From UHGV virus genome UHGV-0259093: a stretch of 32,840 bases of DNA; one strand, 5' to 3'. This document shows, one piece after another, positions 1-32,840 of the stretch. Position numbers and translations under genes: made by a program. Numbering within the stretch: position 1 is the stretch's first letter; the number at the start of each line of letters is the position of its first letter. The notes below the pieces were generated by a model. The model worked only from the letters and a program-made list of their open reading frames with translations. It made no database searches and was not told where the DNA came from. Origin of the DNA: a virus.

Positions 1-514
<514 letters not shown>

Positions 515-4452: not shown

Positions 4453-4460
4453 ATATTCCT

Positions 4461-4929: not shown

Positions 4930-4980
4930 AAATATCTCCTAAAATAAAATGGGGAAGGTTAATCTCCTCCCCATTATTTA

Positions 4981-8671
<3,691 letters not shown>

Positions 8672-9295: not shown

Positions 9296-9296
9296 A

Positions 9297-9848: not shown

Positions 9849-9885
9849 ATATATTTCCTCTTGGGTTGTATGATGTATTTATATA

Positions 9886-9910
9886 AGAAAAGGGGCATAA
9901 CGCCCCCTTT
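9886..9910 (-). terminator. hairpin, possible attenuator or terminator after the tape measure gene
   Basis: aaaggggc ataa cgcccccttt hairpin. Shares the 16-nt string ataagaaaaggggcat with the endolysin terminator at 3463-3478. T-richness after the stem on the minus strand is modest. Confidence 0.35.
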
Positions 9911-9913
9911 CAA

Positions 9914-12432: not shown

Positions 12433-12482
12433 ACCCCTAGTACAGATAAGATCTAGATATGTGCGTAGTTCGTGATCCTCAA

Positions 12483-12782
12483 TTATTTTTTTTCGATTTC
12501 GTCCACTACATCAGATTCTTTATATAGATCCATAATAGCCATATATATTTTTGCTACTACTTCAGAATCGAGTACATTTAGGTTTACACGACCTTCAATA
12601 TCTTCAGTACTGAAAATTGGATCACCGATTTCATCACAAGTACATACGGATACGCATTCCATAGGATCGGTTAGTTTAGAAATATCTTTTGCACGTGCAC
12701 GGTGAATATATAGATCAATACCTTCAATACTATAAGTGTGTTTCTTTGGTGCTAGTTTGTTTAATACATCCTGTAGGTTCAT
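12483..12782 (-). CDS. tail assembly chaperone (lambda gpG equivalent)
   Basis: 99-aa acidic protein directly upstream of the tape measure gene, ending in GAA AAA AAA TAA. Confidence 0.6.
   Translation of the reverse strand: MNLQDVLNKLAPKKHTYSIEGIDLYIHRARAKDISKLTDPMECVSVCTCDEIGDPIFSTEDIEGRVNLNVLDSEVVAKIYMAIMDLYKESDVVDEIEKK
12486..12492 (-). other. programmed -1 ribosomal frameshift slippery heptamer A_AAA_AAA
   Basis: Minus-strand mRNA reads G AAA AAA A TAA (plus strand 12483-12494 ttattttttttc). Heptamer is in X_XXY_YYZ register with the G frame and sits immediately before its stop. Confidence 0.5.
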
Positions 12783-12844
12783 TATAATTTCCTTTTATTA
12801 TTGTAAAAAAATAGGGCGATAGAAAATACTATCACCCTTATTTA

Positions 12845-13303
12845 TTATTCTTTTGGTAGTAAACCAGATTCGATAGCTGCACCATCAACCGCTAGATTAA
12901 ACGATTTGGTAACTACTGCGTCTTTATCACCAGCGATAGTTGTAGAACTAACGAAACATGTATAGACAACATAGCAGCCTGTAGTTTCAGTAGCGTCTGT
13001 GTAGTAACTTAGACGAATCTGACAACGCTTCTGCTCATCTGCTAGTGTTTCTAGCAATTGGTGTGTCTCGTTATCTGGAAGATAGTTAACTTGTAGTTCA
13101 ATATCTGGAATTGATTTAGTACCTAATAGTTTACGGTTATAAGCACTATTGAATGTGACTACATCGATTACAACTGATTCAAAACCTGAAGTAGTGAAAG
13201 AGGCAACTTCTGGTACTTCTTTAAAGTCAGTAGCTAGGGTAGTACCCGCACTTGTACCTACTTCAACTTTTAAATTAGCACCTGAAAAGATATCCATTGG
13301 CAT
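12845..13303 (-). CDS. putative major tail tube protein
   Basis: 152 aa, positioned immediately upstream of the chaperone pair as in lambda V-G-GT-H order. About one third identical to the N-terminal ~150 aa of the 13370-16396 fiber. Confidence 0.45.
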   Translation of the reverse strand: MPMDIFSGANLKVEVGTSAGTTLATDFKEVPEVASFTTSGFESVVIDVVTFNSAYNRKLLGTKSIPDIELQVNYLPDNETHQLLETLADEQKRCQIRLSYYTDATETTGCYVVYTCFVSSTTIAGDKDAVVTKSFNLAVDGAAIESGLLPKE

Positions 13304-13369
13304 TTTTATATTTCCTTATATAAGTTTATTTCTAGTAGGGCAAGAATCCTTTCTTACCCTACGTTGTAT

Positions 13370-16300: not shown

Positions 16301-16396
16301 TATTTCTTCGTTGCCTGCATTATCGGGAATACGGTTAGCAGTATCATTATTATAGAATAACTTAAAGTTATTACCTGTAAAAATATCATTACTCAT
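13370..16396 (-). CDS. long side tail fiber with phage tail fiber repeats and C-terminal intramolecular chaperone (peptidase S74-type) domain
   Basis: Repeated ANGGTGAKTAAEARTNLG / ANGGTGASTVAQAQVNLG motifs. C-terminus GRDYKEDIVEAKTDEALERILSQKMVNFVYKDDEQKRQRFGIIAEE matches the auto-cleaving chaperone domain of endosialidase / L-shaped fibers. RBS aagga upstream. Confidence 0.8.
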   Translation of the reverse strand: MSNDIFTGNNFKLFYNNDTANRIPDNAGNEEINELAAMPSFGIESEIQTLETYDSEYSSKLAAEQNVDNIDITVNYIPDDETHAFLDAATESQKEFQLTLRYNIEDGLINYSMVNGQIQSANVSGDKDTVVMKTYSFVPTDVITRDGTALASAALVEGSYGVGSNGGDVPQYQPERPLGNSFIKIPASQVGNPASADMMGVGLIDGTTFSSIAMTKTGSLAIYAKNQTTAWQRILTTNLGDTKYVALTGDQTIAGNKTFSGNVKVNSLISANKITGADVEATGAITGESIKTTTSTLGVASAGSLTLGQALTVANGGTGAKTAAEARTNLGVKAAGTFDIVPVANGGTGASTVAQAQVNLGIVTSTAMDGKYLIKASNLSDLTNVANARTNLGLGTSAVINTGTSGATIPLLSTENTWSGNQQFNGNQNRFAANSSTGGGIEIGSTVAASTSYIDFHSSGSTVDYDSRIQSTGGSTTAAGSGSMNIMAASLHFNGVLTLTNKLAITEGGTGANSVDAARNNLQAMYRSQTALAASVNLDTLGAAQSGFYYQTLNASATPANKYPIAEAGGLYVYPTGAGTAQACVQEYTSYASNRKWRRVLAGTAGWTAWKEYLTNDQLGVTIPTLDGGNQWNGSQTIKTGGLQVGTLNTSTVGFELGSTTTKAGSFIDFHSSGTGNDYDARIYVGEGSATVGQGLMTFSNGGSYFSSLITTPGINVTNNGTAKFSNAASNPLTITSTNPCLSFVESDSSDSTYLFVADGGSFRLNRDNTGGVALFNYSRTTNTMNFGGVITALGNTTCAGTFDVTSNRVTCGGSSAGTDAIMLRSNGSASYTCNLASNGVVRIRAGFSETVGNYGFQTYTAAGSPQYWISLPLGGGALALQGTSGRDYKEDIVEAKTDEALERILSQKMVNFVYKDDEQKRQRFGIIAEESEINTPQYVKHNPEIYDEVLDEEGNIVEQLTRDRPSIDVNPIVMDLMGSVQSLKKDNDYQQSQIDELKALVQQLMNK

Positions 16397-16410
16397 TTCT
16401 CTATATTTCC

Positions 16411-16815
16411 TTATTGTTTTTGAGTTGCTACAATATTTATAGAGAATGATAAAGATTGATAACCAGTAGTCGGATCTGTAACTACTTCCCCATTGTCGAA
16501 TGCATATGATAATAGTGTTACTGCATTATCTTTAAATTCTTTAATTGTATTTGTTTTGAAATAATCCATAATTTCCCCGAAAATATCGGCGGGAAGTTTT
16601 ACTGATGGTTCGGGTACTAACAGGAATTGAAAATCAAATGTTCCCGTTTGTCTTTGAGTACCGAAATTTGTTAGGTTATAACTCTGGTTTACACTAACTA
16701 GAATGAATAGATCCTTACCTGCCTGAATATTCATAGCCTTTCGGATTGGTTGAATATTATTCAAACTCGTAATTATCGTGGTTTGTACGTCTTTTAACAG
16801 TGCCATAATTACCAC
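16411..16815 (-). CDS. head-tail connector or tail completion protein (by position)
   Basis: 134-aa ORF between the capsid and tail fiber genes. No motif recognised. Confidence 0.4.
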   Translation of the reverse strand: MVIMALLKDVQTTIITSLNNIQPIRKAMNIQAGKDLFILVSVNQSYNLTNFGTQRQTGTFDFQFLLVPEPSVKLPADIFGEIMDYFKTNTIKEFKDNAVTLLSYAFDNGEVVTDPTTGYQSLSFSINIVATQKQ

Positions 16816-17018
16816 CCATAGTTATTAATGGATGTTAGGCGTATATAGATTTCACTGATACCGCTTAAATCATCGTATACATTACTTACTGTATAACTAA
16901 CACCGCCGATACCTAGAATAGTACCTGCTGTAATATTATGCGTTTTAATATCTGCTGACTTTGCAGAAATAAACGTTTCTACACTTTCTACTAATCCTTC
17001 AGTACCGCTATCTAACAC
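16809..17018 (-). CDS. small hypothetical head-tail protein; track start is a GTG
   Basis: 69-aa ORF. The codon at 17016-17018 is GTG on the minus strand, so the true start is uncertain. Confidence 0.3.
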   Translation of the reverse strand: MLDSGTEGLVESVETFISAKSADIKTHNITAGTILGIGGVSYTVSNVYDDLSGISEIYIRLTSINNYGW

Positions 17019-17137
17019 AACGGGCGTACATCTACTATACCCGTAAATGACGCCCCGTTAATTGTGATAGGTTCACCAAAGGCATTTAAGAAAGTAGAAT
17101 CAATTTGATTACTTGTAAAATGCCTCATGGGTAATCC

Positions 17138-18988
17138 TTATGCTTGTAGTTTAATTTGTACGAATGCTTCCTCGTGACCGATTGCAGTGTCGAGATATTG
17201 GAAACTACGAATAGCGATAGTTTGAGCCGCACGATAAGTAGTATCGTCAAAATCTAGTTCTTGGCCTTCATTCCAGTTAGCGAAAATTAGCTCTGAGAAG
17301 TCACCGATTAGAATGGTATCTTGTGCAACGAAAGTAGATTCAATTACACGTACTTCATCGTTTAGCCACATGTCATAGCGATGACCTGCTACCATTGCTA
17401 CGGCTGCGGTATTGCTGAGAACTGCGGTTTGACGTAGTTTTGCTAGCATTGCTGGATGCACGATAGCTACACAACGATTAACATCAACGTTTGCTACACC
17501 TAGTGCCTCAATTGCTTTTTGTACGTCTGCTTCGGTTACTGTACCCGCTGCTGCTGTTTCTTGTACTGGTACTGCTAGTGCAATTTTATCAAATACTGCT
17601 TTTTCTAGACCGTTAGAGCAATGGCGTAGTAGTTCATCAGTTACATAACGTTCAGTTGCTGCATTGCTTAGTAGCATTGCTTTAGTAACTTTAATACCTG
17701 CTGCAAACATAGTAGGCTTTAGAGTGATCTTGTCGAAAGATTCAAAACCATCTACTACGGATTCATCTTCACCGTAGAATTTCGCTACAGGGTTCATACC
17801 TTTAGCACGTGGGATAGAGAAATTACCACGACCTGCTAGGCCACCAAATACAGTAACAGGTAGTTGACCTAGTACAGTACGTGCTAGTAGTTCACGTAGA
17901 TAAGAGTCGGCTAGTTGTTCTTTAACTAGACCTGCTGCGGTAACAGTAGAGGTAGTATCTGAAGTAGAACGTACCATTGCATTTAGATCAGCACTATAAC
18001 CACGTGAACCTTTATCAAAAGTTGCTAGTTGGTTATCTTCACCTTTAAGACTACGTAGACCTTCAGCGATTAGAGATTTATTTTCCATTTGTTTGATATC
18101 CTTATCAATTGATTTATCTTTATTTAGTAGTGAGCGTTTAAATTCATCTACGCTTACACCGTTTTTAATTGCTTCTTCGGTACTAATCCCTAGTACGTTA
18201 GAAATAGATTGAAGTTCGCGTACACGCTTATCTTCTACATCTTTATTTAGTTTTTCTTGAATATTGATTTCAGTAGTTGCAATAGAACGTTCTTCTACTA
18301 GTTCCACTTCTTGAAGTGGTTCGGATACTTCTTCTTTTACTTCTTCTTCTTTCACATCTTCAGCGACTACTACAACTTCTTCAGTAACTTCTAATTCTGG
18401 TTGTACTTCTACTTCCTGAATTTCTTCTACGGCTTCTACTTGTGGTAATTCTTGTTTTTGTTCTTCCATGATTGGTTGATCCTCTAAAGTGATTTCTTCA
18501 TTTCTATTTAGTGATCTTCCAATTCCTACTGTATTGTCTGCGGGGGTACTTACTGAACTTAATTCATATGGTTCCCATCGAGTTACATATAAATTATCAC
18601 CTTCAAAGTAATAATCTTTAATGTTGTAACCTACTGATACTTTCGGGCGAATGCCTTCTAAGATCATACCGAAAATAGTTGTAGCACTTCCTAAAGCACT
18701 AAAGCGTACTGTTGCACGACATACTTTATCCATATCTACGCGGGCGTTTTCTACTATTCCAACTTGACGCATTGCATCATGTTCTACTAGAACTGGTGCA
18801 CCATCATTAAGACGGTTTAAATCTACGTTCTCTGGATTGCATAGAAGGATCTCATTAAATAGAGATCCGTTGATTTCGCGAGTTACTGGAATTTCTGAGG
18901 CAAAAGATAATTCGACGGTACGATCATTTTCATCAATAGCATTACTGATCTGTGTTAGATTGATCGCCCTCTTCTGGTTCAATTCCAT
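17138..18988 (-). CDS. prohead protease - acidic scaffold-like linker - HK97-fold major capsid protein fusion
   Basis: N-terminal ~170 aa resemble HK97-type prohead protease (ELSFASEIPVTREI...VLVEHD). Highly acidic coiled region (EEQKQELPQVEAVEEIQEVEVQPELEVTEEVVVVAEDVKEEEVKEEV). C-terminal ~300 aa are capsid-like. Sits between portal and connector genes. Confidence 0.75.
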   Translation of the reverse strand: MELNQKRAINLTQISNAIDENDRTVELSFASEIPVTREINGSLFNEILLCNPENVDLNRLNDGAPVLVEHDAMRQVGIVENARVDMDKVCRATVRFSALGSATTIFGMILEGIRPKVSVGYNIKDYYFEGDNLYVTRWEPYELSSVSTPADNTVGIGRSLNRNEEITLEDQPIMEEQKQELPQVEAVEEIQEVEVQPELEVTEEVVVVAEDVKEEEVKEEVSEPLQEVELVEERSIATTEINIQEKLNKDVEDKRVRELQSISNVLGISTEEAIKNGVSVDEFKRSLLNKDKSIDKDIKQMENKSLIAEGLRSLKGEDNQLATFDKGSRGYSADLNAMVRSTSDTTSTVTAAGLVKEQLADSYLRELLARTVLGQLPVTVFGGLAGRGNFSIPRAKGMNPVAKFYGEDESVVDGFESFDKITLKPTMFAAGIKVTKAMLLSNAATERYVTDELLRHCSNGLEKAVFDKIALAVPVQETAAAGTVTEADVQKAIEALGVANVDVNRCVAIVHPAMLAKLRQTAVLSNTAAVAMVAGHRYDMWLNDEVRVIESTFVAQDTILIGDFSELIFANWNEGQELDFDDTTYRAAQTIAIRSFQYLDTAIGHEEAFVQIKLQA

Positions 18989-20435
18989 TTTCCATTTTTT
19001 CCTTTTGTATTTCTTCCATGACTACCGCCGGGTCATAACCCATTTCACTAATAACCATTGCTTTACTCTTAAGTCCTGAATCAATTGCAAGTACCTCAGT
19101 TTGAAGGTCTTTATATGGATCAAGTGAGATTTGGCGAGTTGGTACATATTGGGCATGAGTTAGATTATTGAAGTCACTAAAACTTAAATTGCTTAATGCA
19201 CTATTATTTATCATTGCTGCTTTCAACCACGTAACATAAAGAGGCTTAAGTACAGAAACGATTAACGCATTAGTACGAGTTTTAAATGTTGATTGTTGTA
19301 GTTTGTCCGTTAGTTTTGCTGCACTAAATGAAGCATTACTAGTATCAGAGGTTAGGGATTGTTTTGTAATATCAAGCCCCATTGCAATCATCATTAATTG
19401 GTTATCTACGAATTCACTAATACCATCTGTAGTTTGTGTAGGGTTAACAGTTTTAATATCCTGTCCTGCCTGTAGTTCTACGATAGCTGCCGGATTTAGA
19501 TAATCTTGTTCATAGTAAGAAACATCATCACCTTTTAGTAATTCGATTTCATCACTATCTGGATTAGTAATAAATGCCATTGCTGAAGCTGCTACTTTAC
19601 GAGAAGTAATAGCCGCAACCATGAATTCTTCTAATTCTTTTAATTTATCAGTACCTGCATGTACATCTGGAATACCGCGTTGCTGTGTTGGGTAGTCCTG
19701 CTGGAATAGGTGTAGAATCTCTTCTGCTGGTACTCGTTCACGTTCACCTAAAAGGTAGTTGTACATGATAGGGTTATAGCGAGTAATCCAATATGCAACC
19801 GGGCGATTAGTATCAATATCAAATTCAATACCATTACTGATATAGTTACCTGAAGGTAGAATCTGGTTTTCATATGTACTAATTCGCATTGAGTCGATGA
19901 TCTCTACCTGTGGCATACCATCACGCGTTTGGTGAATGCGGATAAAGCAATCTCCATCGATACTACGAGTACGTTCTACAAGGCGTTGGAATGTACTGAT
20001 ATCAAGCGTACCGCAACGGGAAAAGGCTTTAGGATCTTCGGCCCATGCATAAAAAGCATCTTCTAACTGTTTATTCACCTGTTGGTTTACTTTGTCATCC
20101 TGTGAACTATGCGAACAAGGGCGAATATATAGACCATCTGCACCAGTAACACCCGCTGAGTTAGTCGCAACGTACTTTTTAACGATACCGTTTTTAATAG
20201 ATAGTTCACGGCTTGCCGCTACCATCACTGGTAAAGTACGATTAATAATTGCGTTAATGTTCCCGGCTTGATTTCCTGCGGTGAATCCGAATGAAATAAC
20301 AGGACTACTTGAACCTAGATTTAGGGAAGTCATAGCACGTTTCATTGGGTTGTTTTTCATTAATGCAGTTTTATGTATTTGTACTTTTGGTTTTTCTGGT
20401 TCCTGTACTTTTTTATTTTTATTCCATCCGAACAT
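18942..20435 (-). CDS. portal protein
   Basis: 497-aa ORF immediately downstream of the large terminase and upstream of the protease-capsid gene. Size and synteny typical of lambda-family portals. Confidence 0.75.
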   Translation of the reverse strand: MFGWNKNKKVQEPEKPKVQIHKTALMKNNPMKRAMTSLNLGSSSPVISFGFTAGNQAGNINAIINRTLPVMVAASRELSIKNGIVKKYVATNSAGVTGADGLYIRPCSHSSQDDKVNQQVNKQLEDAFYAWAEDPKAFSRCGTLDISTFQRLVERTRSIDGDCFIRIHQTRDGMPQVEIIDSMRISTYENQILPSGNYISNGIEFDIDTNRPVAYWITRYNPIMYNYLLGERERVPAEEILHLFQQDYPTQQRGIPDVHAGTDKLKELEEFMVAAITSRKVAASAMAFITNPDSDEIELLKGDDVSYYEQDYLNPAAIVELQAGQDIKTVNPTQTTDGISEFVDNQLMMIAMGLDITKQSLTSDTSNASFSAAKLTDKLQQSTFKTRTNALIVSVLKPLYVTWLKAAMINNSALSNLSFSDFNNLTHAQYVPTRQISLDPYKDLQTEVLAIDSGLKSKAMVISEMGYDPAVVMEEIQKEKMENGIEPEEGDQSNTDQ

Positions 20436-20962
20436 TAACGCCCCCTATGAAATGTTGTAATAGATTTAATAGGGCTACCTGCGTTTAGTCCTTTCATATC
20501 TGAAATTAAATCGTTTGCCCTTTTAACATAGGTAGAACGTAGGCGTAGAAGTACTTCGCTTGATTCATAAGTTAGGGCTTTATTTTGTATTGATTGACTT
20601 AGTACACCACCACCTTTAATACGGTCTAGTGTAATTTGGTCAATATCTTTTATGATCTGAATTAGATCATTATATTCTGAGGCTTTACTAGTTGGATCAG
20701 TTACTTCAAATTGTTGTACACCGTATGCTTTAGGACTATCAATAATTGCAGTCCAGATACCCACGCCCCACGTATTAGTATCAATATCAGGGAATGGGTA
20801 AACATAGGAAGTTTTAACACCGTTAGGATCTATCAAATCGATATTAGTTCCTTCTGGATAGTTGAAAGTAATTGTTTCACCTTTGATAATATCGCCTTTT
20901 AAATCAACTTTGCGAACAATTGCCATTTGTTTTATTTCCTTATTTAAAGAATCCTCCACCAC
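20435..20962 (-). CDS. hypothetical head protein (occupies the gpW head-tail joining position between terminase and portal)
   Basis: 175-aa ORF; synteny only. Confidence 0.4.
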   Translation of the reverse strand: MVEDSLNKEIKQMAIVRKVDLKGDIIKGETITFNYPEGTNIDLIDPNGVKTSYVYPFPDIDTNTWGVGIWTAIIDSPKAYGVQQFEVTDPTSKASEYNDLIQIIKDIDQITLDRIKGGGVLSQSIQNKALTYESSEVLLRLRSTYVKRANDLISDMKGLNAGSPIKSITTFHRGR

Positions 20963-22868
20963 GTCTAGACGGACGTACTACACGACCTGTTTTTACTGGT
21001 GCTGGTTCTTCTTTATTTACTTCTTTATTTAGTCCTTTCTCTTTTTGTTTGGCGTTGAATTCGCGTAGTTTGCGGAATGGCTGATTACCTAATTTAGATA
21101 GATACCAGTGGAAACATATTAAAGCGTAGTTAAGACAATCAAGCGTTTCATTCCTTGCTGAACTAATTTTCTTAACCCATACCCACGCCCCAGCTTTAAT
21201 AACTCTCTTCTCACTTGATACCTGAATAAAGTAATCATCTGGTACTGAATGGCTGAAGTGTATTTGTACTTCACTACTATTACCACTATCCGATACTGCA
21301 CGGTTTAATAGTTGTCTAATATTACTTTTCCCTAAGTTTACGTTTAGGTTTATTAGACTATGACCACCAGCCGTAGAGCCTTTAAAGAGTGGGTTAGTAT
21401 TTGAAGTACCGCCCTTGATTGGTTTAAAGATTGTCGATGCACTACAATAGCGATATACCGTACTGGTTGCGTTACCGTTCGAACTATCTACAAAACCTGC
21501 AAGTACTTTAAGTGGTTTACCGGATACGGTTTTAAAGTTAGTTTGTGAAAATGCTGTTAGCTTATTCCATGCGGGAGCCTCTATTTTAGTACAGTCAATG
21601 CTATGAATACTGCGATGATCGAGTACATAAAGATTCTTTTCACTTATTCCTAACGTTGTTACTTCAAGGCGGTCTAACTGTTGGTCTACACCTAGTACGA
21701 TTCCTTGACAGTCATCCGGCACGGTATCTATATCTATTGAACTATCACGTAGGTTTTCAAGTAATACTAAATCATGATCGGTATTCTCTTTATCAATATA
21801 AGGAAGTCCTAAGACGTTATTGTAGAATGAGGCTAGATCAAATGTATAATGTGCTTCGGCAAAATCCTGTACTATTGATTTGATCGAGTTAATCGGGGAG
21901 TATAAACGGCTAATATGATACCCCATGATATCCGTTACTTCTGGTACTGTAGCTATCCATTCACCCTTACGTACCATTCTTACACGTTCGGCTTCTGTGA
22001 TTACATTATTACACTTAGGACATTGTAGTTTTGCTGTCTCTGCATCTGGAATGCGACGACGACCACCATCAATAATTTTCCAGTCGAATTTAACATTTTC
22101 AAATACTAATTCATGTGCATGATCACAATGTGGGCAAGGTACGTAGAACTTCTGTTTATTACTTTGCTCGTACTGCTGAGTGATTAAATCATTCTCATCA
22201 AGTGGTGTAGAACAAACCATAATAAGAGGGTTGCTAAAAGCCTTTGTACGCTGTTCTGCTAGCTTTAGTGGGTTCCCTTCATCACCATCTGCATCTACGT
22301 TAGATATTTCGTCAAGAAAGATACGGGGGGCTGTCAAGCCTCGCAAATTCGCACTACTACCCAATGTTAGGAAGTACGTAAAAGTACCGTCTAAGTTTTG
22401 TTGTGTCTTATCATTATTAGTATAGTTTTTATCATTCTTATTACTGACTAGATTTTTAAGTACTGCACATGCTTCGATTACTGATTGCCATTTACCAGTA
22501 CGAAACTTACTAGTAGTGCTGGCTGTTGCACCTGCGAAAATTAGATTGCTTGGATCATTTGCGAGGAAGTAGTACATACTATTCTGTAAAACTGTTGTTT
22601 TGAGAAGTTGTGCACTGCTCATCAAAACTATTTTTCTAATTCTTGGATTAGTAATGTCATTTATGGGCTTGTGCTGAAAGGAAAATAACTTTACGCGTTG
22701 TCCTTGTAGTTCCCCATCCGGGAATACTAAATTATTCTCTACCCATTCCGCTGGTAGTTGTCGCTTCGGAGGTAGGATCGACTTCGCCGCCCTCGTTAGT
22801 ACCTTCATCATCTTCTGGTAGTTGTTCATCCGTGTATGTTCCTTCATATTCATAGCTACCAATTTCAT
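20940..22868 (-). CDS. terminase large subunit, GpA family
   Basis: 642 aa. PCPHCDHAHELVF, GVDQQLDRLEVTTLG and ARNETLDCLNYALI parallel lambda gpA ACPHCGEEQYLKF, GIDSQLDRYEMRVWG and RRNEALDCFVYALA. Several in-frame Met near the N-terminus, so the true start may be later than 22868. Confidence 0.9.
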   Translation of the reverse strand: MKLVAMNMKEHTRMNNYQKMMKVLTRAAKSILPPKRQLPAEWVENNLVFPDGELQGQRVKLFSFQHKPINDITNPRIRKIVLMSSAQLLKTTVLQNSMYYFLANDPSNLIFAGATASTTSKFRTGKWQSVIEACAVLKNLVSNKNDKNYTNNDKTQQNLDGTFTYFLTLGSSANLRGLTAPRIFLDEISNVDADGDEGNPLKLAEQRTKAFSNPLIMVCSTPLDENDLITQQYEQSNKQKFYVPCPHCDHAHELVFENVKFDWKIIDGGRRRIPDAETAKLQCPKCNNVITEAERVRMVRKGEWIATVPEVTDIMGYHISRLYSPINSIKSIVQDFAEAHYTFDLASFYNNVLGLPYIDKENTDHDLVLLENLRDSSIDIDTVPDDCQGIVLGVDQQLDRLEVTTLGISEKNLYVLDHRSIHSIDCTKIEAPAWNKLTAFSQTNFKTVSGKPLKVLAGFVDSSNGNATSTVYRYCSASTIFKPIKGGTSNTNPLFKGSTAGGHSLINLNVNLGKSNIRQLLNRAVSDSGNSSEVQIHFSHSVPDDYFIQVSSEKRVIKAGAWVWVKKISSARNETLDCLNYALICFHWYLSKLGNQPFRKLREFNAKQKEKGLNKEVNKEEPAPVKTGRVVRPSRRGGGFFK

Positions 22869-23533: not shown

Positions 23534-24472
23534 ATGAAACACATAATCCAAACCAGAAGTGTTTTTAAGGATATCGAAGACTCTTTATTTAGTGAGTTGC
23601 ATTCAGCTAAGACAAGTATCAAAATCTGTGTTGCATGGATAAACTTTGAGCTTTTTGAAAATATATTATTATCTAAGGCTAAAGAAGGTGTTGAAGTTGA
23701 GATATTAGTTAATAATGATTATATCAATACAAAATTTCTTGATAAAATATCTGATAATATAAAACCATTAATTAATCTAATTAAAAACCCTATTAGTAAC
23801 CACTTAATGCATCATAAATTTTGTATCATTGATGATGAAGTTTTGATTACTGGCAGTTATAATTGGTCAAAAAGAGCACCATATCATTATGAAAATATAA
23901 TAATCATCCGTAATGATTTCAATCTAATAATGCAATTTAAACATGAGTTTGCAGATTTAAAATACATGGGTGCAATGCCAAGTACAGAATTTAATGCATT
24001 TAAAGTAACCAAAAATCTCAATAGATTTGTTGTTGGCACATATAGTTCATCTGTGGGGATATATGAAACCGTCACATTGCAGTTATGGGAAATTGATATT
24101 AACAACTTAACTTTTGAACGACATGGCGAAATGGATATCCCTTTCTTCAATTATTTATTAGATATTAATACTGATGATCATTATCTTATTGATGAAAAAG
24201 AAAGGTACATCGATCTATATGATCAAGAGCGTAGACAGATGGAGACTATCCAAAGTCATTTTAGAAGATTAAATTGTTCAATTCATGCTTATGGAACAGC
24301 AATAATAGCGAACGAGAGCGAATACCTTGAAGGTTATGAAGAGCCTATTCGTGTAATTCACTTCAATTGGATAGATATGCGATTAAGCAAAGTATTACCC
24401 TCTTCTTTGCCCGCAACTATGGAACTTGAAGGATTATGGCACGAAATATATGCTCCAAATGGATATATTTAA
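23534..24472 (+). CDS. phospholipase D-family (single HKD motif, Nuc-like) nuclease with an uncharacterised ~160-aa C-terminal domain
   Basis: HHKFCIIDDEVLITGSYNWSKRA is a canonical HxK(x4)D(x6)GSxN motif. RBS aagga 6 nt before the ATG. Markedly AT-rich. Confidence 0.75.
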   Translation: MKHIIQTRSVFKDIEDSLFSELHSAKTSIKICVAWINFELFENILLSKAKEGVEVEILVNNDYINTKFLDKISDNIKPLINLIKNPISNHLMHHKFCIIDDEVLITGSYNWSKRAPYHYENIIIIRNDFNLIMQFKHEFADLKYMGAMPSTEFNAFKVTKNLNRFVVGTYSSSVGIYETVTLQLWEIDINNLTFERHGEMDIPFFNYLLDINTDDHYLIDEKERYIDLYDQERRQMETIQSHFRRLNCSIHAYGTAIIANESEYLEGYEEPIRVIHFNWIDMRLSKVLPSSLPATMELEGLWHEIYAPNGYI

Positions 24473-24489
24473 ATAATATTCTATAATTA

Positions 24490-24864
24490 ATGAGGAACGG
24501 TATTATGTCTAATTATCCTATACCACTTAGCCTTGAATTTAATAGTCAAGATACTGCTAATATCATTTGTAGTTATCTAGAAAAAAATCATCAAGATTCT
24601 ATTTTAAAAACCATATTAAATATAGATTTGTCTTTTATTGATTATCGTGCACAATCTTCTAATTACTTTATAATTAATGACGTTGAATATATTGGAGATA
24701 ATAATTATATTTTATATTATAAAATAAACTACTACATTTATAATCTCTGTAAAGATATGGATATTGATGATGACTACGAGACTTCGATAAATTTTACATT
24801 GAATAATGGATTTTTAGTATTTGATATAATTGATTGTGAAAGAAATATATCAGATGAAATATAG
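24490..24864 (+). CDS. small acidic protein, partner of the PLD nuclease; likely start at ATG 24505
   Basis: RBS gagga 8 nt upstream of the second ATG (MSNYPIPL...). Asp/Glu-rich (DMDIDDDYETS, DIIDCERNISDEI). 32-nt gap after the PLD gene. Confidence 0.55.
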   Translation: MRNGIMSNYPIPLSLEFNSQDTANIICSYLEKNHQDSILKTILNIDLSFIDYRAQSSNYFIINDVEYIGDNNYILYYKINYYIYNLCKDMDIDDDYETSINFTLNNGFLVFDIIDCERNISDEI

Positions 24865-25388: not shown

Positions 25389-26114
25389 TTATTTCCTTAA
25401 TAACTTTTTTAATTCCTCAACTGTCTTCATTTCTTTTCCAATATGAATCATTGCATGACAGTTTGCACATAAAGGTATAAGATCTTCAATTGGGTCAATC
25501 TTATAGCGTTTACCAATAGTATGTAGTGGCACTATATGATGAACATGAATATAATTTTTTCCGTGACTTCCATACACTTCTTCAAAATTAAAACCACAGA
25601 CACCACAACTCAAACCATGTTTATCGATACATTCTTTTCTAGCCTTTGGATCTCTCTCATAGTACGTAGCAATCCTTTGATGCTTTTCACCTTCATAGTA
25701 TTCACTTTCTATTTCAGGTGTGAATGAATAGTAATCTTCATCGGTGGCATACCAATCTCCATCTTTTTTAGTAAGATATTTTCGTACTATTTTCTTTTCA
25801 AAATGTTTAATCCTAGCAGCACCATTTTCAGTTGTTTTCTCATGCCTAGTCTGGCTAAAGGTGAAAAGACTATACCCTTCATGTAAAATTTTATCTATGT
25901 GTTCGATAGATTGTGTATAACCATTTTTTTTGTGTCCATTTACATTTTCACGCCAACTGCTAGCCAAGATTAAAACTTTCTTACCATCATCTGATCTAAG
26001 ATCTTCCCAAGCTCCAAAAATTATTTTTTTGTTGATCTCATCAATAAATGACCAACTCCAGTTATCATTTTTACATGTAGCACCCAAAGAACGCATGAAC
26101 TCTGTTCGGGACAT
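25389..26114 (-). CDS. HNH-family endonuclease of restriction type (COG3183-like) with an uncharacterised N-terminal domain
   Basis: C-terminus ERDPKARKECIDKHGLSCGVCGF...IHVHHIVPL...DLIPLCANCHAMIH carries the Cys pair and His/Asn-type HNH motif of predicted HNH restriction endonucleases. Confidence 0.75.
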   Translation of the reverse strand: MSRTEFMRSLGATCKNDNWSWSFIDEINKKIIFGAWEDLRSDDGKKVLILASSWRENVNGHKKNGYTQSIEHIDKILHEGYSLFTFSQTRHEKTTENGAARIKHFEKKIVRKYLTKKDGDWYATDEDYYSFTPEIESEYYEGEKHQRIATYYERDPKARKECIDKHGLSCGVCGFNFEEVYGSHGKNYIHVHHIVPLHTIGKRYKIDPIEDLIPLCANCHAMIHIGKEMKTVEELKKLLRK

Positions 26115-26317: not shown

Positions 26318-27028
26318 ATGCTTAATCTCACTAAATGTAATTTACTTTTGATCGGCACTGTAATAACTCTATTACTGATAGCTATTCTTGTAGGTATAAA
26401 AATACTATTCTCCGATTCTAATCCAGATCTAGGCAGCTTAGCAGATTGGATCAGTTCTGTATCCGCAATAGGGACTCTTGGTGTTGCCTGGTTAGCTTAT
26501 AGTAAAGCTGATGACTACATTGACAAAAAAGCTTCGGAAAGAGGAATTGATATCCTTGTCAATATGGTAACTGAATCATTCGTTGCTTATTTCAACTCAC
26601 TAAATGAAACTAATTTCCATGCTTCAAAACTTGAAAATAAAATGATATTGATTGGCTTGGTTGATGAAAAAGTAGATTGCAATATTGAACTACAATCATT
26701 AAGAGAAAAAATCATAACTCTCTTCGAAAATAGTCATCAAATAGACAAAGATTTTATAAAAATGAAAATAATGAAAATATCAAAACCCAGTGATATTTTC
26801 TACGATCCAGTAACTAGCGATGATACATTGCAAGCGTTAAAATTAGCATTTCATAAACTGAACACTGAAATTTGTGAGAATGAAAATCAATACAACATTA
26901 ATAATGATTTACTTAGCGAAAATATCAACTTTATTAAAAACACTACCGAAAAGTTAGCCCATGATATTCGCAAACAGTTCTTTACCTCGCCGAATACTTA
27001 TAAAGATTATTTTGGAAATCTGTCTTAA
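26318..27028 (+). CDS. two-TM membrane protein of unknown function, paralog B of the 549-1289 protein
   Basis: N-terminal helix LLLIGTVITLLLIAILVGI followed by DLGSLADWISSVSAIGTLGVAWLAY. Perfect TATAAT at 26294-26299 upstream. Confidence 0.7.
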   Translation: MLNLTKCNLLLIGTVITLLLIAILVGIKILFSDSNPDLGSLADWISSVSAIGTLGVAWLAYSKADDYIDKKASERGIDILVNMVTESFVAYFNSLNETNFHASKLENKMILIGLVDEKVDCNIELQSLREKIITLFENSHQIDKDFIKMKIMKISKPSDIFYDPVTSDDTLQALKLAFHKLNTEICENENQYNINNDLLSENINFIKNTTEKLAHDIRKQFFTSPNTYKDYFGNLS

Positions 27029-27073
27029 ATTATACGCTATCAAATATTCCATCAACATAAACAAGGAAAGTAG

Positions 27074-27772
27074 ATGACTACTCTCACTAGAACTTATAAT
27101 TTACCAAATGAGCTAGTTGAACATTTTTCAAATAACATTGTCTATTTCGAAAAACTTTTGTCTAAGGATTTTTCTGACTTAAATGTTAATGTAGCACCAG
27201 AAGACATTAAGAAAATAGAAAAATCTTTCGAAGTATCACATAGAATACGTGATTTCGAAATCAATCTGTATTGGCAAAGACTGAACTTCCTTTGGGCCAT
27301 TACAGCATTGCTATTTGCTGGATGGGGAACATTGATCTTTAAAATCATCGAATTCAATGGAGGGGAAGCACCTTATATTATATTTGCCGCCTTATCATTT
27401 CTCTCACTTATAGGTGGGATTGTAACTATATTCACAAGCTTTATCATTGAGGCAGGTAAGCATTGGCAAAAGGTTTGGGAGTTTCATGTTCACGCTCTTG
27501 AACCTTTTGTATCAGGTCATTTATATGCAATTCAGTTTTCTTATAAAAATAAAAAAAAGGCATCTATAAGTAGAAGCGTAGAAACTTTCAATTATGCTTT
27601 GCTGTTTCTTTGGGCATGTTCAGCAGTATTCGCCGCAATCATCCCTTCACAAATAGGGAACGGTCTTGCAGGCATTATCCAATTAGTTATTTCTCTTCTT
27701 ATAGTTGGTGCTTTTGTTTATATACGCAACTCTGTTACTAAAAAGGAGTCTATTAAAATTCAGCTTGATTAA
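27074..27772 (+). CDS. four-TM integral membrane protein of unknown function
   Basis: Hydrophobic segments FLWAITALLFAGWGTLIF, YIIFAALSFLSLIGGIVTIFTSFII, FNYALLFLWACSAVFAAII, GIIQLVISLLIVGAFVYI. Follows paralog B by 45 nt. Confidence 0.65.
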   Translation: MTTLTRTYNLPNELVEHFSNNIVYFEKLLSKDFSDLNVNVAPEDIKKIEKSFEVSHRIRDFEINLYWQRLNFLWAITALLFAGWGTLIFKIIEFNGGEAPYIIFAALSFLSLIGGIVTIFTSFIIEAGKHWQKVWEFHVHALEPFVSGHLYAIQFSYKNKKKASISRSVETFNYALLFLWACSAVFAAIIPSQIGNGLAGIIQLVISLLIVGAFVYIRNSVTKKESIKIQLD

Positions 27773-27792: not shown

Positions 27793-28002
27793 TTAAGCAG
27801 CCCCATAATGGGGCTTTCTTTTTTTAGCATTTACTTTTTGAATGCTCATAAGAATCTCACGTACCTTTGCTTCATTATCACCTGCATCATATAGTACCCC
27901 ATCTTTCCAGTACTGACCCAGTAGTTCTACTTTTGGTAAGCCCGGCATTGCCCTTACTCCATCTTCGTGATCAATATGTAATTCAAGTGATCCAATAATC
28001 AT
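27793..28002 (-). CDS. small hypothetical protein
   Basis: 69-aa ORF overlapping the next gene by 4 nt. 3' end overlaps a plus-strand terminator hairpin, which lowers confidence. Confidence 0.35.
   Translation of the reverse strand: MIIGSLELHIDHEDGVRAMPGLPKVELLGQYWKDGVLYDAGDNEAKVREILMSIQKVNAKKRKPHYGAA
27799..27825 (+). terminator. rho-independent terminator after the membrane-protein pair
   Basis: Stem agcccca (27799-27805) / tggggct (27809-27815), 3-nt loop, then ttcttttttt. Confidence 0.6.
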
Positions 28003-28199
28003 TGCACGAAAGTTGTTAGGGTTAATTGAAAGTATTCTGCATCGTCTGGTTGTAGTTCAGCGTAATATTCTGGTGTGCTATCAAATGTAATTTCATTATT
28101 GATCATTACGCCCTGTGTATTTACTGCATATCTACGTTGTTTCATTCGGTCAAATAATAGTATTCCTTTCACGCGGTGATATGTTGTTAGTTCCCTCAT
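27999..28199 (-). CDS. small hypothetical protein
   Basis: 66-aa ORF in an overlapping three-gene string. Confidence 0.4.
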   Translation of the reverse strand: MRELTTYHRVKGILLFDRMKQRRYAVNTQGVMINNEITFDSTPEYYAELQPDDAEYFQLTLTTFVQ

Positions 28200-28525
28200 T
28201 TGGTTAGTCCTTGGTAGTAAGCCTTAGTAGCTCTGATATTGAATTCTTTGTTTAGGTGTGTATATGATGGCATATGCCCGTTATCCGTCATGTATCGCTC
28301 TATGTAGGCCGTAAGTAGTTCTAACTTGGTTGGGCTTACATCTGGTGTATCACTCAATAGAGAGCGTTTAGGGGCGTTATAGAGGCCATCACTTCGACCG
28401 CCTTGATTCTTGATATTGTGGCGTAGTGTATTCCACTTACCGGGCTTTTGTTTTGGCATAGTATTGTACTCCTGTACTGGTTGATTAATTGGGGCGGCGA
28501 CTCGTTCACACCTGCGGCGGTTCAC
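28196..28525 (-). CDS. small hypothetical basic protein; probable true start at ATG 28459 (MPKQKPGKW...)
   Basis: Track start is a GTG. The internal ATG has an aggag RBS about 10 nt upstream. Confidence 0.4.
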   Translation of the reverse strand: MNRRRCERVAAPINQPVQEYNTMPKQKPGKWNTLRHNIKNQGGRSDGLYNAPKRSLLSDTPDVSPTKLELLTAYIERYMTDNGHMPSYTHLNKEFNIRATKAYYQGLTK

Positions 28526-29478: not shown

Positions 29479-29964
29479 TTAGTTGTCTTTTGCAACCTTT
29501 GTATATGTCTGTCTATGTGTACTTCTATTGTACTTTTCATTCATGAATAGCGTGATATTGATACATGACATTCCACCAGTGTATAACGCCTTTACTTCAT
29601 CTTTTTGTACTGGTGTTAGACGTGGTTCATTTTGTTTCTTACGTACTGCCTTACATGAATTTTCACTATATGTAATCCACTGCAAATTAGAAATATTGTT
29701 GTCTCGTTTATCACTATTGATATTATCTACAACTAATCTTTTATTTGTTTGGGGTTTACTTAGAAATGTTTCTGCTACGAGTCTGTGTGTCTCTATCGGA
29801 TATGATTTAGATTTCCCATCCTCATAAACAGTTAAAGTAACTTTATAGTACCCATTACTTTTACTATAACTCTGTGTTAGATAATTACCCGTTTTAGTAT
29901 TGCGTACTTCTCCGTTACTACTTACTTCATAATTTACATATTGTGTTTGTTTCCATAATGTCAT
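29479..29964 (-). CDS. HNH homing endonuclease (NUMOD4-like N-terminus plus HNH_3 motif)
   Basis: YEVSSNGEVRNTKTGNYL and HRLVAETFLSKPQTNKRLVVDNINSDKRDNNISNLQWITYSEN are the hallmark motifs of phage-encoded HNH homing endonucleases. Confidence 0.8.
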   Translation of the reverse strand: MTLWKQTQYVNYEVSSNGEVRNTKTGNYLTQSYSKSNGYYKVTLTVYEDGKSKSYPIETHRLVAETFLSKPQTNKRLVVDNINSDKRDNNISNLQWITYSENSCKAVRKKQNEPRLTPVQKDEVKALYTGGMSCINITLFMNEKYNRSTHRQTYTKVAKDN

Positions 29965-30042: not shown

Positions 30043-30264
30043 TTATTGATTTTCGATTAGTAGTTTGAAAGTTGGAAAATTCATCCTTTCAAATAGTTCT
30101 GTATGTAGTTTACGTGTTGTGTGGTAATACTTCATATCTTTATAGAAATCAGAATGGATTACCGTATTACAGTACGTTTTACCATTTGGTTTAGATACAT
30201 CTGCAATTAGTACATTGTCGGTATCGGTACGTACATTGTTAAAATGGAATTCGCCAAAGTTCAT
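30043..30264 (-). CDS. small hypothetical protein, translationally coupled to the upstream RHH-like gene (toxin candidate)
   Basis: 73-aa ORF whose ATG overlaps the stop of the RHH-like ORF (TAATG arrangement). No motif recognised. Confidence 0.45.
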   Translation of the reverse strand: MNFGEFHFNNVRTDTDNVLIADVSKPNGKTYCNTVIHSDFYKDMKYYHTTRKLHTELFERMNFPTFKLLIENQ

Positions 30265-30419
30265 TACTTCTTTCCTCCTAAGATTACTTGTTGATTGAGT
30301 AGATATTGTAAAGCGGTACTCATTGATTTTGCTTTCCCTTCATCAATGATACTTTGTAGTACATTGTGTTGATGTTCGTTTAGACGTGCTGATACTTTGT
30401 ATTCTTTATTTTCTTTCAT
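30264..30419 (-). CDS. ribbon-helix-helix (CopG/Arc-like) small DNA-binding protein, 51 aa, below the ORF-track cutoff
   Basis: My translation MKENKEYKVSARLNEHQHNVLQSIIDEGKAKSMSTALQYLLNQQVILGGKK. Short beta-strand (KVSARL) followed by two helices fits the RHH layout. Confidence 0.45.
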   Translation of the reverse strand: MKENKEYKVSARLNEHQHNVLQSIIDEGKAKSMSTALQYLLNQQVILGGKK

Positions 30420-30467
30420 TGATTTTCCTTTTGTCTGCAAATCCTTAAAAATTTCATGTAAAAATCA

Positions 30468-30485
30468 CCCCGTAGGGATACGGGG
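30468..30485 (-). terminator. hairpin terminator for minus-strand transcription entering from the right
   Basis: Stem ccccgta / tacgggg with ggga loop; T-run follows on the minus strand. Confidence 0.4.
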
Positions 30486-30828
30486 TAATAACAAAATCTA
30501 AGGAGGAGGGATTTTAATATTCACACTTATTTATGAGATGAGAGCGGTCGCCCCCTTCATATACTATTATTATATCACATTTTGCCCATTTCGTCCCAGA
30601 AATCGACAAAATCAATTTTAAGTGGCTGATTTATATGTATTTATTACAGAAGTCGCGATTATCGCCATAATGCATAAGAAGAGATATACTAAAAATGCAA
30701 TGTATAGATAAACTATCCACCCGGTGATCATAAACACCATACCTACCACTAATACAAAAGCACTGACTAACCAATCTAACATAGTTTCCCCTTATAATTA
30801 TTATGTACAATTATTTATCAATAAGACG

Positions 30829-30867
30829 AAAAAAAGCCCCGTAATGCGACATCAATCGATACGGGGC
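30829..30867 (-). terminator. rho-independent terminator downstream of the serine recombinase gene
   Basis: Stem gccccgta (30836-30843) / tacggggc (30860-30867), followed on the minus strand by seven T (plus 30829-30835 aaaaaaa), ~75 nt after the recombinase stop. Confidence 0.5.
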
Positions 30868-30941
30868 ATAACAACTACTACTATATTATTTTTTGTTTAC
30901 GGTATTTCTAATCTACTTTCTAGGCCAAAATAAATGCCCGT

Positions 30942-32840
30942 CTAGATCTGGTCTATCCGATAACGCTCTATGAACTCTTTACGTGTTAAACCAGTCGATT
31001 CTAATGCAGTGGCTATATCCTTTGGAACTCGACCATTCAAGGCAATACTATATGTATTGCCTTCATACACAATGTCTACTCGATCATACTTTCCGGTATT
31101 AGGCCAGAATGAAGCCCCACTTATTTCACTATAACCAACCACTTCTAACATCTCATTAGCAGTATTGAACAGATCTAAATAACTTTGTTCAATTTTATCA
31201 AGTTGTTCCACTGCTTTATTAAATAATGGCAGATTGCTAGTGGTAAGAAATCCTTCATCTCTGATACTTACATTATCAACAGAAGAAAATTCAACTTTAA
31301 ACGCCCAATGTGGTTTTCTATCAGTTCCACCAAAAACTAACCATTCATCTTTAAAATGATACTTTATTTTTATCGTTATACACCCATCAGTTTTATCAAC
31401 TATAACACTTTCAATAATAGAACTAATTACTTTCCTTATTTTATTTCTATCCGTATCCTGCATATTTGTAAAAACCGCCCACTGAATAAGAATCATAAAT
31501 TCATTTATATCGACTTCTAGAGATCCTTTACCTTTCAGTGAATATAAGCGTTCTTTTAACTTATCAACTTCCAGAACAGTCTTTTTACGTTCCATATCAA
31601 ACGCATTTAGTTGAACTGCTAACGCACTAACATTAGGAGCAATTGCTATTGCTTGAGCCATGTTTGTTATGCGAGATTCCAGATCAGTTATCAACGTTTC
31701 TTTTCTACTGAGGTCTTCTTCTATCACAGTTGTGTCAATACCATCTTTTAGTCTCTTATTCATGTAACCGATCAGTAGTGAAATGATCGTACAGTGTTCA
31801 ACTAATTGTGCTGATATAGACCAGCCAGAACAGTTTTTTTGTAAGTGAACCCCATTAGTACAAATATAGCGAGCACTGCCATGATTCATGAAAGAATGCA
31901 TAGTTCCTCCACACTTGCTACACCGTAACACCTGCAACCCTGATAACAATTTAATTTCTTCTACTTTGTCTTTCTTAGCCTTGAAGTTGTTTTGCTGCTT
32001 ACGTTCAGCCAAGGTTAAATACTCTGCTTCATCTTTGCATAACCATGGATAGTAGTTATCAAGTTTGTAAGTAGCACCACCAGCATTGATAGTCCTTTCA
32101 CCAATCAACGCCCGATTATCACGCATCTTTTTCAATACCTGATAATCCCATTCTTTACCCTTTAAACCATTAGGATATTTTTTATCGAGATGACGCTTTA
32201 CTGTATAGATGCCATTCCCATCTAAAAACATGTCTATAGCTTCGCGAGCGATACTCCAGTAAACGGGATGTTCTTTTACTGCTTCATATTGCGAACCTGA
32301 ATCATCTATCCAAAATGGATGGCGACCAACTGACTTAATGTTTACTGGCAACCCTGCTTTATGACGTTCGACCAAGGCAACAACATTGCCTATGGTCCTG
32401 TTAGATTTCGTTTCTGATTCTTCATTGCCACGGATAAACATCAGAATAGAAATCATCAGATCAGTAGGGTTTTGTCTGATGGATTCTCTGTTATAGACCT
32501 TCCGATCCATTCCTGTGACAATCGTTAGCCCTAAACCAATCAATTCAAGGAATAAACGAAGTGCTTCATCCACCTGATCGCGTGATAGTCGGTCGAGGTT
32601 TTCACAGTAAAGCCAAGAGTCAGACGGTATAGCATTATTTTTTACGGCGTCTATGAAGTCACCCAACTTACCCGCCCTATTTTTTCCCCTGTAAGCACTC
32701 GTGCCAGGTTCCAAAATTTCAACCATTTCAAGCCCCGCTTCTTCAGCATAGGCTTTCGCTGCCGCTACCTGCCTGTTCTTGGTTGTTCCTTTTTCTTGGC
32801 GATCACTTGACCACCTGATATAGCTATAAAGTTGCGGCAT
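30942..32840 (-). CDS. large serine recombinase (phage integrase type)
   Basis: N-terminal YIRWSSDRQ with catalytic Ser and LDRLSRD typical of the resolvase domain. 632 aa, Cys-rich zinc-ribbon-like segment (CSKCGG...CTNG). ATG is the last three bases of the window. Confidence 0.9.
   Translation of the reverse strand: MPQLYSYIRWSSDRQEKGTTKNRQVAAAKAYAEEAGLEMVEILEPGTSAYRGKNRAGKLGDFIDAVKNNAIPSDSWLYCENLDRLSRDQVDEALRLFLELIGLGLTIVTGMDRKVYNRESIRQNPTDLMISILMFIRGNEESETKSNRTIGNVVALVERHKAGLPVNIKSVGRHPFWIDDSGSQYEAVKEHPVYWSIAREAIDMFLDGNGIYTVKRHLDKKYPNGLKGKEWDYQVLKKMRDNRALIGERTINAGGATYKLDNYYPWLCKDEAEYLTLAERKQQNNFKAKKDKVEEIKLLSGLQVLRCSKCGGTMHSFMNHGSARYICTNGVHLQKNCSGWSISAQLVEHCTIISLLIGYMNKRLKDGIDTTVIEEDLSRKETLITDLESRITNMAQAIAIAPNVSALAVQLNAFDMERKKTVLEVDKLKERLYSLKGKGSLEVDINEFMILIQWAVFTNMQDTDRNKIRKVISSIIESVIVDKTDGCITIKIKYHFKDEWLVFGGTDRKPHWAFKVEFSSVDNVSIRDEGFLTTSNLPLFNKAVEQLDKIEQSYLDLFNTANEMLEVVGYSEISGASFWPNTGKYDRVDIVYEGNTYSIALNGRVPKDIATALESTGLTRKEFIERYRIDQI

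Follow-up and report, generated by a model that had tools for sequence, protein, structure and literature searches.

Burkholderia phage JC1 integrates at the 5' end of rimO, which was established by isolating lysogens and sequencing the junctions; its attP is located 41 bp ahead of the serine recombinase gene, and the phage ATG keeps rimO in frame (PMC9144972). Integrative elements at rimO that cause no domain disruption have also been noted computationally, and the rimO clade was not characterised further (PMC7192596). Integrases specific for dusA likewise enter the 5' end of a housekeeping gene whose frame is restored by the element, although they were described as a novel, separate integrase family (PMC4482086). 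Here we report on the large serine recombinase (LSR) encoded at the edge of the virus genome UHGV-0259093, analysed as a stretch of 32,840 nt (the window), and on its attachment sites and the phage that carries it.

The LSR is very probably the integrase of a temperate siphovirus-like phage of about 33.8 kb in Escherichia coli and neighbouring genera, with attP beside its own gene, attB in rimO and a crossover at TG. We propose that the enzyme would recombine two sites, attP directly upstream of the integrase gene and attB within the first 20 codons of rimO, and that strands would be exchanged at TG, the two bases with which the RimO Cys17 codon begins. The left arm of attP, which brings an ATG, would act as a coding mimic of the start of rimO and leave the gene open. 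An attachment site that was previously unassigned is thereby replaced by concrete attP, attB, attL and attR sequences for an uncharacterised integrase, and the observation in the Burkholderia phages JC1 and Bcep22 is linked to a wider set of enterobacterial phages and islands. The sequences suggest how an element with a serine integrase can insert into the 5' part of a conserved gene without abolishing its function. The system is a typical, well-behaved member of a class already known, in a phage lineage without a cultured representative, and the current understanding of serine integrases is unchanged.

Attachment sites in rimO

The exact LSR protein was looked up in public assemblies and found at ten loci, in E. 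coli assemblies and metagenomes. In all ten, 43 bp separate the LSR start from a rimO of 435 aa transcribed in the opposite direction; this rimO is 99.9% identical to E. coli rimO and is flanked by dgcI, pdeI and gsiABCD as in E. coli (in two loci directly by gsiD). The opposite prophage end, reached by looking up the leftmost gene of the window, adjoins a native rimO 5' fragment and then bssR; in an E. coli genome with an empty site, rimO and bssR are adjacent. One metagenome scaffold holding both ends gave a core-to-core prophage size of 33.8 kb.

In the rimO sense, attB reads ...GGCTTTGTTTCCCTTGGC-TG-TCCGAAAAACCTTGTTGAT... (core ...CTTGGC-TG-TCCGAAAAACC), attL ...GGTTTTATATCATTAGGG-TG-TCCGAAAAACCTTG... 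(core ...TTAGGG-TG-TCCGAAAAACC) and attR ...GTTTCCCTTGGC-TG-CCCTAAGAATCAAGAAATAAAGTCAGC... (core ...CTTGGC-TG-CCCTAAGAATC). The reconstructed attP is ...AAGATTGGTTTTATATCATTAGGG-TG-CCCTAAGAATCAAGAAATAAAG..., or in short form ...ATATCATTAGGG-TG-CCCTAAGAATCAAG.... Written as sites of about 56 bp and about 50 bp, respectively, attP is AAGATTGGTTTTATATCATTAGGG-TG-CCCTAAGAATCAAGAAATAAAGTCAGCTTG and attB is AAAATCGGCTTTGTTTCCCTTGGC-TG-TCCGAAAAACCTTGTTGATTCAGAGC. On sequence comparison these sites fit the pattern expected of a serine integrase, attP and attB having essentially only the 2-bp central dinucleotide in common. The crossover TG of attL lies at virtual positions 32914-32915, that is, 74-75 bp beyond the window edge at 32840 (9926-9927 in locus L003, with the LSR ATG at 10001), and the rimO start codon supplied by the prophage lies outside the window, 44-46 bp past the same edge. 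A first-pass annotation of the window had placed the promoter and any upstream att site beyond 32840, and had taken the last triplet of the window as the start codon of the recombinase; inspection of the sequence beyond the edge bore out both statements. The ATG (cat, 32838-32840) is indeed the final triplet of the window, and we consider it the true start because longer copies of this DNA have an in-frame TAG stop directly before it.

In the RimO motif SLGCPKN, the crossover TG falls on bases 1 and 2 of the Cys17 codon. On this comparative evidence the crossover is confined to the TG dinucleotide, because the flanking bases differ between phage and host in attL, attR, attB and the haplotypes: on the left the phage has G where the host has C, and the base to the right also differs. 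In attP the TG is the centre of a perfect 6-2-6 dyad, TTAGGG-TG-CCCTAA; such dyads number about ten in the whole window and arise by chance about once per 4 kb. Cys17 is presumably among the three residues that ligate the N-terminal Fe-S cluster in methylthiotransferases, and given this role the crossover dinucleotide would be hard for the host to change.

Our initial reading had the same integrase and site but a central dinucleotide CC, two bases to the right (GGGTGT-CC-TAAG in attP). CC is likewise common to attP and attB, and both TGT and TGC alleles of the Cys17 codon are present in E. coli (TGC in about 8% of complete genomes), so that attR, GGCTGCCC, could in principle be wholly host-derived. 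Haplotypes were counted in 5426 complete E. coli genomes (RefSeq). The attR junction is always TGC, whatever the host background, and attL carries to the right of TG whatever the host carries. The attB haplotype TGT+GTT is exact in 1871 of the 5426 genomes, with a further 2807 one base off, most likely the GTC variant; TGC is linked to GTC in 436 genomes, and TGC+GTT is exact in none. Since five lysogens have GTT to the right of the junction, the allele before integration would have been TGT, and the C in attR would come from the phage. A CC core requires the TGC+GTT host haplotype for these five lysogens, as well as a separate phage variant for the attL GGGTGCCC of lysogens in other genera, whose rimO has TGC but whose LSR is nevertheless 100% identical. 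It also breaks the 6-2-6 dyad seen here and in JC1. The CC core was dropped on the allele counts and the other-genus lysogens and appears very unlikely, and we retain TG as the core.

Independent support comes from a CHARACTERISED phage, JC1, which has the same rimO codon and the same TG. Its attP, ...ATAGTATCCCTCGGG-TG-CCCGAGAGATATC, encodes MSKKYSIGIVSLGCP (...SLGCP) and forms a perfect CTCGGG-TG-CCCGAG dyad; the attP of Bcep22, ...ATATCACTAGGC-TG-CCCCTGA (GGC-TG-CCC), encodes ISLGCP. Like the LSR described here, JC1 gp1 and Bcep22 gp06 (Lessievirus) are encoded at one end of the genome, a few tens of bp downstream of attP, target the 5' end of rimO at the L-G-C-P codons by a TG-centred attP, and go with a phage-supplied ATG and N-terminus. 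They differ in that they are 31-34% identical to this LSR over 42-55% of the protein and have no counterpart of its extra C-terminal domain. Moreover, they belong to unrelated podoviruses of 61-64 kb and 65% GC with hosts among the Betaproteobacteria, whereas the phage here is siphovirus-like, with 33.8 kb and about 36% GC. JC1 and Bcep22 are among the best LSR matches in the phage database, where Bcep176, Rb1 and LPPA36 match at a similar level and have no rimO mimic. The likeness may reflect either common descent or convergent targeting, which we do not rank.

The prophage of E. coli GF3-3 (LSR WP_047667738.1) has the same site, the 43-bp spacing to rimO, the TG core (attP GGC-TG-CCCAAAAAATCAAG) and a syntenic genome of about 33 kb. 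Its LSR (581 aa) is 70% identical but lacks the C-terminal domain of about 50 aa, and its early region differs, with a 958-aa protein replacing the HNH gene and small open reading frames (ORFs), and with SLATT+SMODS cargo instead of the PLD-like cargo found here.

The left arm of attP reads ATG TCT AAG ATT GGT TTT ATA TCA TTA GGG TG. Integration swaps the native 17-codon N-terminus of RimO, MSKVTPQPKIGFVSLGC, for the 11-codon phage sequence MSKIGFISLGC and keeps the frame, which yields the 435-aa rimO frame that diverges from the LSR gene. The NCBI pipeline annotates the 435-aa product as RimO in related E. coli lysogens, and the chimeric RimO is presumably functional. A 41-nt probe across the natural attB matches about 94% of complete E. 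coli genomes at ≤1 mismatch. Being near-universal in E. coli and used in other Enterobacterales and Aeromonas, attB is a candidate for single-copy chromosomal integration tools.

The recombinase and the region downstream of its gene

The LSR gene (30942..32840, minus strand) is a single intact ORF of 632 aa. The N-terminal catalytic domain matches the Pfam family Resolvase (PF00239; E = 1e-12, 48.8 bits, cut-off 23.3) and the first DNA-binding domain (DBD1) matches Recombinase (PF07508; E = 1.3e-6, 29.0 bits, cut-off 21.1), while the zinc ribbon is a sub-threshold match to Zn_ribbon_recom (PF13408; 22.4 bits vs. a cut-off of 25.3). PHROGs assigns the protein to phrog_95, integrase (1.6e-45). 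The catalytic motif Y-x-R9-W-S11 and D83-R84-x-x-R87 are invariant in an alignment of 17 homologues; in an alignment of 93 homologues, which takes in partial sequences, D83, R84 and R87 show no variation and conservation of R9 and S11 is 90% or higher. The zinc-ligand residues C307, C310, C327 and C337 of the zinc-ribbon domain are invariant in both alignments. The LSR is presumably enzymatically active.

In the AlphaFold2 (AF2) model (pLDDT 80), a catalytic domain (approximately residues 1-125) and a long alphaE helix (residues 125-161) precede the recombinase domain (approximately residues 165-285, helical at 194-284). Beyond the zinc ribbon follow a coiled-coil hairpin at residues ~371-437 (helices 371-400 and 405-437) and an extra alpha/beta domain of about 50 aa at the C-terminus (residues 583-632; window 30942-31095, minus strand). 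This extra domain is restricted, within this LSR family, to the subgroup of about 630-660 aa and is missing from the 581-aa forms with the same attB. A profile search of the PDB with residues 371-437 yielded marginal coiled-coil matches only (best E 0.019). PDB sequence searches with the LSR gave no match passing E = 0.01 and were uninformative, so that a fold search was required. The best Foldseek matches of the model in the PDB are full-length serine integrases (E~1e-14); the phiC31, Bxb1 and Listeria A118/LI integrases and the att-bound complexes with and without a recombination directionality factor (RDF; 9dxh, 9dxf) have the same multidomain fold. Characterised serine integrases likewise use a 2-bp non-palindromic central dinucleotide and short att sites and are expected to have a directionality factor. 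Those characterised structurally differ from the LSR in sequence (13-17% identity), hosts and target gene.

The LSR gene is separated by 501-522 bp from the next well-supported gene (start 30419 or 30440), and no att site was found in these ~500 bp. An intrinsic-terminator-like hairpin, T1 (30829..30867, minus strand; dG -19.4 kcal/mol, z -2.9, U7 tail), lies about 75 nt past the LSR stop and has an 8-bp GC-rich outer stem. A second one, T2 (30455..30489, minus strand, with the hairpin at 30489-30464; dG -16.1, z -3.9, 11-bp stem, T-rich tail), is matched in folding by 0 of 200 shuffles and sits after a hydrophobic ORF of 54 aa with two predicted transmembrane helices (30618..30782, minus strand). 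The first-pass annotation had described about 520 bp with a strong terminator and no confident gene; the length and the terminator stand, but the 54-aa ORF is called there in public assemblies. Its product has a 96% identical counterpart in Pseudocitrobacter and a 37% identical one in the GF3-3 phage, and comparable hydrophobic ORFs occupy the same slot at loci L023, L030, L031 and L054. By this conservation it is probably a real gene, of unknown function. Bracketed by T1 and T2, it has a layout resembling that of a moron or a small toxin/exclusion gene; the sole promoter-like match upstream would leave almost no leader. The palindrome gcgat-t-atcgc at 30655-30665, which had been singled out earlier, lies inside the 54-aa ORF. 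Arithmetic predicts about 32 such 5-1-5 palindromes in 32.8 kb, and its fold energy is the same as that of shuffled sequence (z -0.6 and 0.05). It was rejected as an att or res site, and we ascribe no role to it. An Rfam scan of 30200-31100 returned chance-level matches only.

One rival reading makes the protein a transposon or plasmid resolvase, or a DNA invertase, with its res or inversion sites in the ~500 bp that follow the gene. The N-terminal domain of the LSR does fall in the Resolvase family, and phrog_125 ('DNA invertase') is a weak match (E = 4.8e-6). Small serine resolvases and invertases (Tn3/gamma-delta resolvase, Hin/Gin/Pin), however, have about 180-200 aa, a C-terminal helix-turn-helix and res or inversion sites beside a transposase gene or an invertible segment, whereas the 632 aa of the LSR include recombinase, zinc-ribbon and coiled-coil domains of the integrase type, and its whole-length fold is that of serine integrases; by its model, the protein is therefore a large serine recombinase and not a small resolvase or invertase. 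Moreover, the gene is located at the exact prophage end beside the mapped attL and attR, the sole transposase sequence, an IS3 fragment, is 32 kb distant, and neither res-like repeats nor an adjoining transposase were seen at the LSR locus. With the downstream palindrome at chance level within an ORF, a resolvase or invertase is improbable to the point of being negligible, and the earlier assignment as a phage integrase rather than a transposon resolvase agrees with the domains, the fold and the mapped prophage junctions.

Relatives, promoter features and state of the prophage

The LSR family is widespread in Enterobacterales and Aeromonas. In a scan of one genome per species, the divergent LSR-rimO arrangement with 43-bp spacing was present in twelve loci with recombinases about 48-100% identical and an element-supplied RimO N-terminus M[SAP]KIGF[ILV]SLGCPKN; the genera are Pseudocitrobacter, Pseudescherichia, Enterobacter, Silvania, Edaphovirga, Serratia, Kosakonia, Klebsiella, Leclercia, Kluyvera and Aeromonas. 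Pseudocitrobacter faecalis DSM 27453 (L022 6001-12523) has a copy of the LSR with 100% identity, and the same phage occupies rimO in at least three host backgrounds (L022, L005, L009), with neighbouring proteins 96-100% identical. The identical LSR and near-identical neighbours across genera point to a recent cross-genus spread. Among the complete RefSeq E. coli genomes, 0 of 5426 carry this phage, whereas in 7 (including GF3-3) the site is occupied by a syntenic relative whose LSR has 581 aa.

An 80%-identical LSR at rimO, common in Klebsiella pneumoniae, serves a quite different element; from such comparisons the integrase module has evidently been exchanged between phages and islands. All Klebsiella-type copies (L059, K. 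pneumoniae, 3300-13000; L061, a metagenome contig, 11900-21900) contain an AAA_23/Cap4-nuclease block together with AbiGi and a small resolvase. The element of L059/L060 also encodes a cI-like repressor and an HTH_35 protein, neither of which was called in L061. Cousin LSRs (32-57% identity over the matched part) are encoded divergently beside other conserved genes with element-supplied N-termini, namely rlmI-like (PUA_3 domain) neighbours in L034-L036 and L045 and members of the satP/yaaH family in L037 and L043, upstream of position 6001 in these loci; the target genes were named from Pfam domains and from reading of the translations. Insertion at a gene's 5' end by means of a coding mimic thus looks like a habit of the family.

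The LSR start is overlapped by a perfect TATAAT that reads towards rimO, and divergent relatives keep TATAAT or TATACT at this position. In the int orientation, the reconstructed attP contains a promoter-like TTGATT-18 nt-TATAAA that spans the core; both hexamers are also found in the attP of GF3-3. The TTGATT -35 box is on the attP arm that ends in attR, and the same scan was empty in attL. Integration would hence separate the integrase gene from its -35 element, and a putative int promoter spanning the attP core would be dismantled. If true, such a split promoter would turn integrase expression off upon integration and on again after excision. Tentatively, and with less than even confidence, these features could be drawn together as an old LSR lineage, of which this LSR would be one branch, with a fixed TG target in the rimO Cys codon across Beta- and Gammaproteobacteria, from which cousins were retargeted to rlmI-like and satP/yaaH genes by swapping the mimic, and in which the int promoter exists only across an intact attP.

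By its predicted genes, the window is a siphovirus-like prophage. On the LSR strand it encodes the small and large terminase subunits, the portal, a protease-capsid fusion, the tape measure, tail-tip and fibre proteins, and lysozyme, and the packaging, head, tail and lysis gene set is intact. The GC content is 28-42% (about 36% overall), far under that of the E. coli host. The lack of recognisable repressor and replication genes is unusual for a temperate phage of about 34 kb. At the left edge, the 3' end of an IS3-family insertion sequence (IS; 1..117, plus strand), 100% identical to transposase ends in many E. coli records, interrupts a prophage gene of 237 aa and separates the window from the final ~1 kb of the prophage and from attR. 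IS-free prophage copies run 996 bp beyond the left edge to the attR core, through the rest of the 237-aa gene, a DUF2188 gene and a terminator, after which the rimO fragment begins.

Several observations weigh against the assignment of the LSR as the integrase of a temperate phage with a TG crossover next to its own gene. The placement of the crossover draws on population haplotypes and symmetry and is comparative rather than a biochemical cleavage map. The int promoter is a single consensus-level match (9/12), and a two-hexamer promoter scan of attL found none, either at the TATAAT site or elsewhere. Pfam and PHROGs scans recognised no repressor or replication module in the prophage, and the closest matches among isolated phages are 36% identical for TerL and 34% for the LSR. 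The window's own copy may be crippled, given the IS3 insertion in a phage gene. The reconstructed attP junction had no match in IMG/VR or in the JGI metagenome contigs, so that the excised or circular form is undocumented.

The attP right arm alone also had no match in the JGI metagenome contigs, a collection that missed attR too and may lack this end. A megablast search of the region against 50,697 phage records returned no match, and since tblastn found only distant LSRs, isolated phages supply no attP. Two contigs of about 30-37 kb with close LSRs, considered as circular phage genomes, were rejected; both are integrated beside rimO.

The IS3 insertion, the missing attP junction in the viral and metagenome collections searched and the lack of recognisable repressor or replication genes would also suit a decaying or domesticated prophage, at least in the window's copy, whose integrase no longer excises and needs no functional RDF. 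Decay is, however, at odds with the intact and 100% identical LSR in E. coli, Pseudocitrobacter and a third background, where neighbours that are 96-100% identical indicate recent spread, with the intact packaging, head, tail and lysis genes, and with the uninterrupted prophage copies that lack the IS. We consider decay improbable and favour the integrase of a temperate phage.

Directionality factor candidates and cargo genes

Serine integrases are unidirectional, and excision needs a cognate RDF that binds the coiled-coil region and the second DNA-binding domain (DBD2). By analogy, the LSR would be unidirectional and its excision would need a directionality factor. Downstream of the LSR gene lies a gene for a 51-aa protein (30264..30419, minus strand; 58 aa from a TTG at 30440), a conserved neighbour of related LSRs. 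Homologues were found 0.1-1.7 kb downstream of related LSRs at 10 loci, including cousins with other att sites, and also in the GF3-3 phage; the protein is absent from the Klebsiella island with the 80%-identical LSR. Apart from it and the 54-aa ORF, no early protein recurs beside related LSRs, and these two are the only early genes common to this phage and the GF3-3 phage. A large protein search returned only two close homologues. In sequence pattern only, the protein is ribbon-helix-helix-like, with a basic alternating N-terminal segment, two helices and a G-x-x-K loop; it had no Pfam match even at E ≤ 1, and its AF2 monomer consists of two helices, with no Foldseek match better than E = 2.8. 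It is the best though a weak candidate for a regulator or directionality factor: that it is the RDF is doubtful on the neighbourhood evidence, and it is no less likely to be an early transcriptional regulator.

The first-pass annotation had named the small proteins at 27793-28525 or 30043-30419 as directionality factor candidates; of these, the 51-aa protein alone gains support from comparison. The other small ORFs are one of 73 aa without a family match (30043..30264, minus strand) and three of 109, 66 and 69 aa (27793..28525, minus strand); none of them occurs outside near-identical copies of this phage. For the 109-aa protein, a match to the winged-helix family LexA_DNA_bind fell below the cut-off (E = 0.037). 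Searches of the small prophage ORFs against Pfam and PHROGs gave no accepted family match and none to RDF families. When an RDF was sought through the gene content common to elements with 70-86% identical LSRs, the Klebsiella island was found to have only the LSR in common. RDFs are documented to be conserved neither in sequence nor in synteny with the integrase gene (PMC12286644), which makes the neighbourhood evidence weak either way.

The prophage also carries two HNH endonuclease genes (29479-29964 and 25389-26114, both minus strand) and a SegE-like GIY-YIG gene (2539-2976, minus strand). Two cargo islands inside the phage, 23534-24864 and 26318-27772, are located on the plus strand, opposite to the phage genes. 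One island consists of a PLD-family nuclease-like protein, with weak PADLOC matches to MkoC/DpdK/DrmC, and a 124-aa partner, and the other of a 236-aa protein and an 8xMP membrane protein. The first cargo slot of the GF3-3 phage holds the SLATT+SMODS genes, and this slot, with PLD-like genes here, looks like a defence-gene hotspot.

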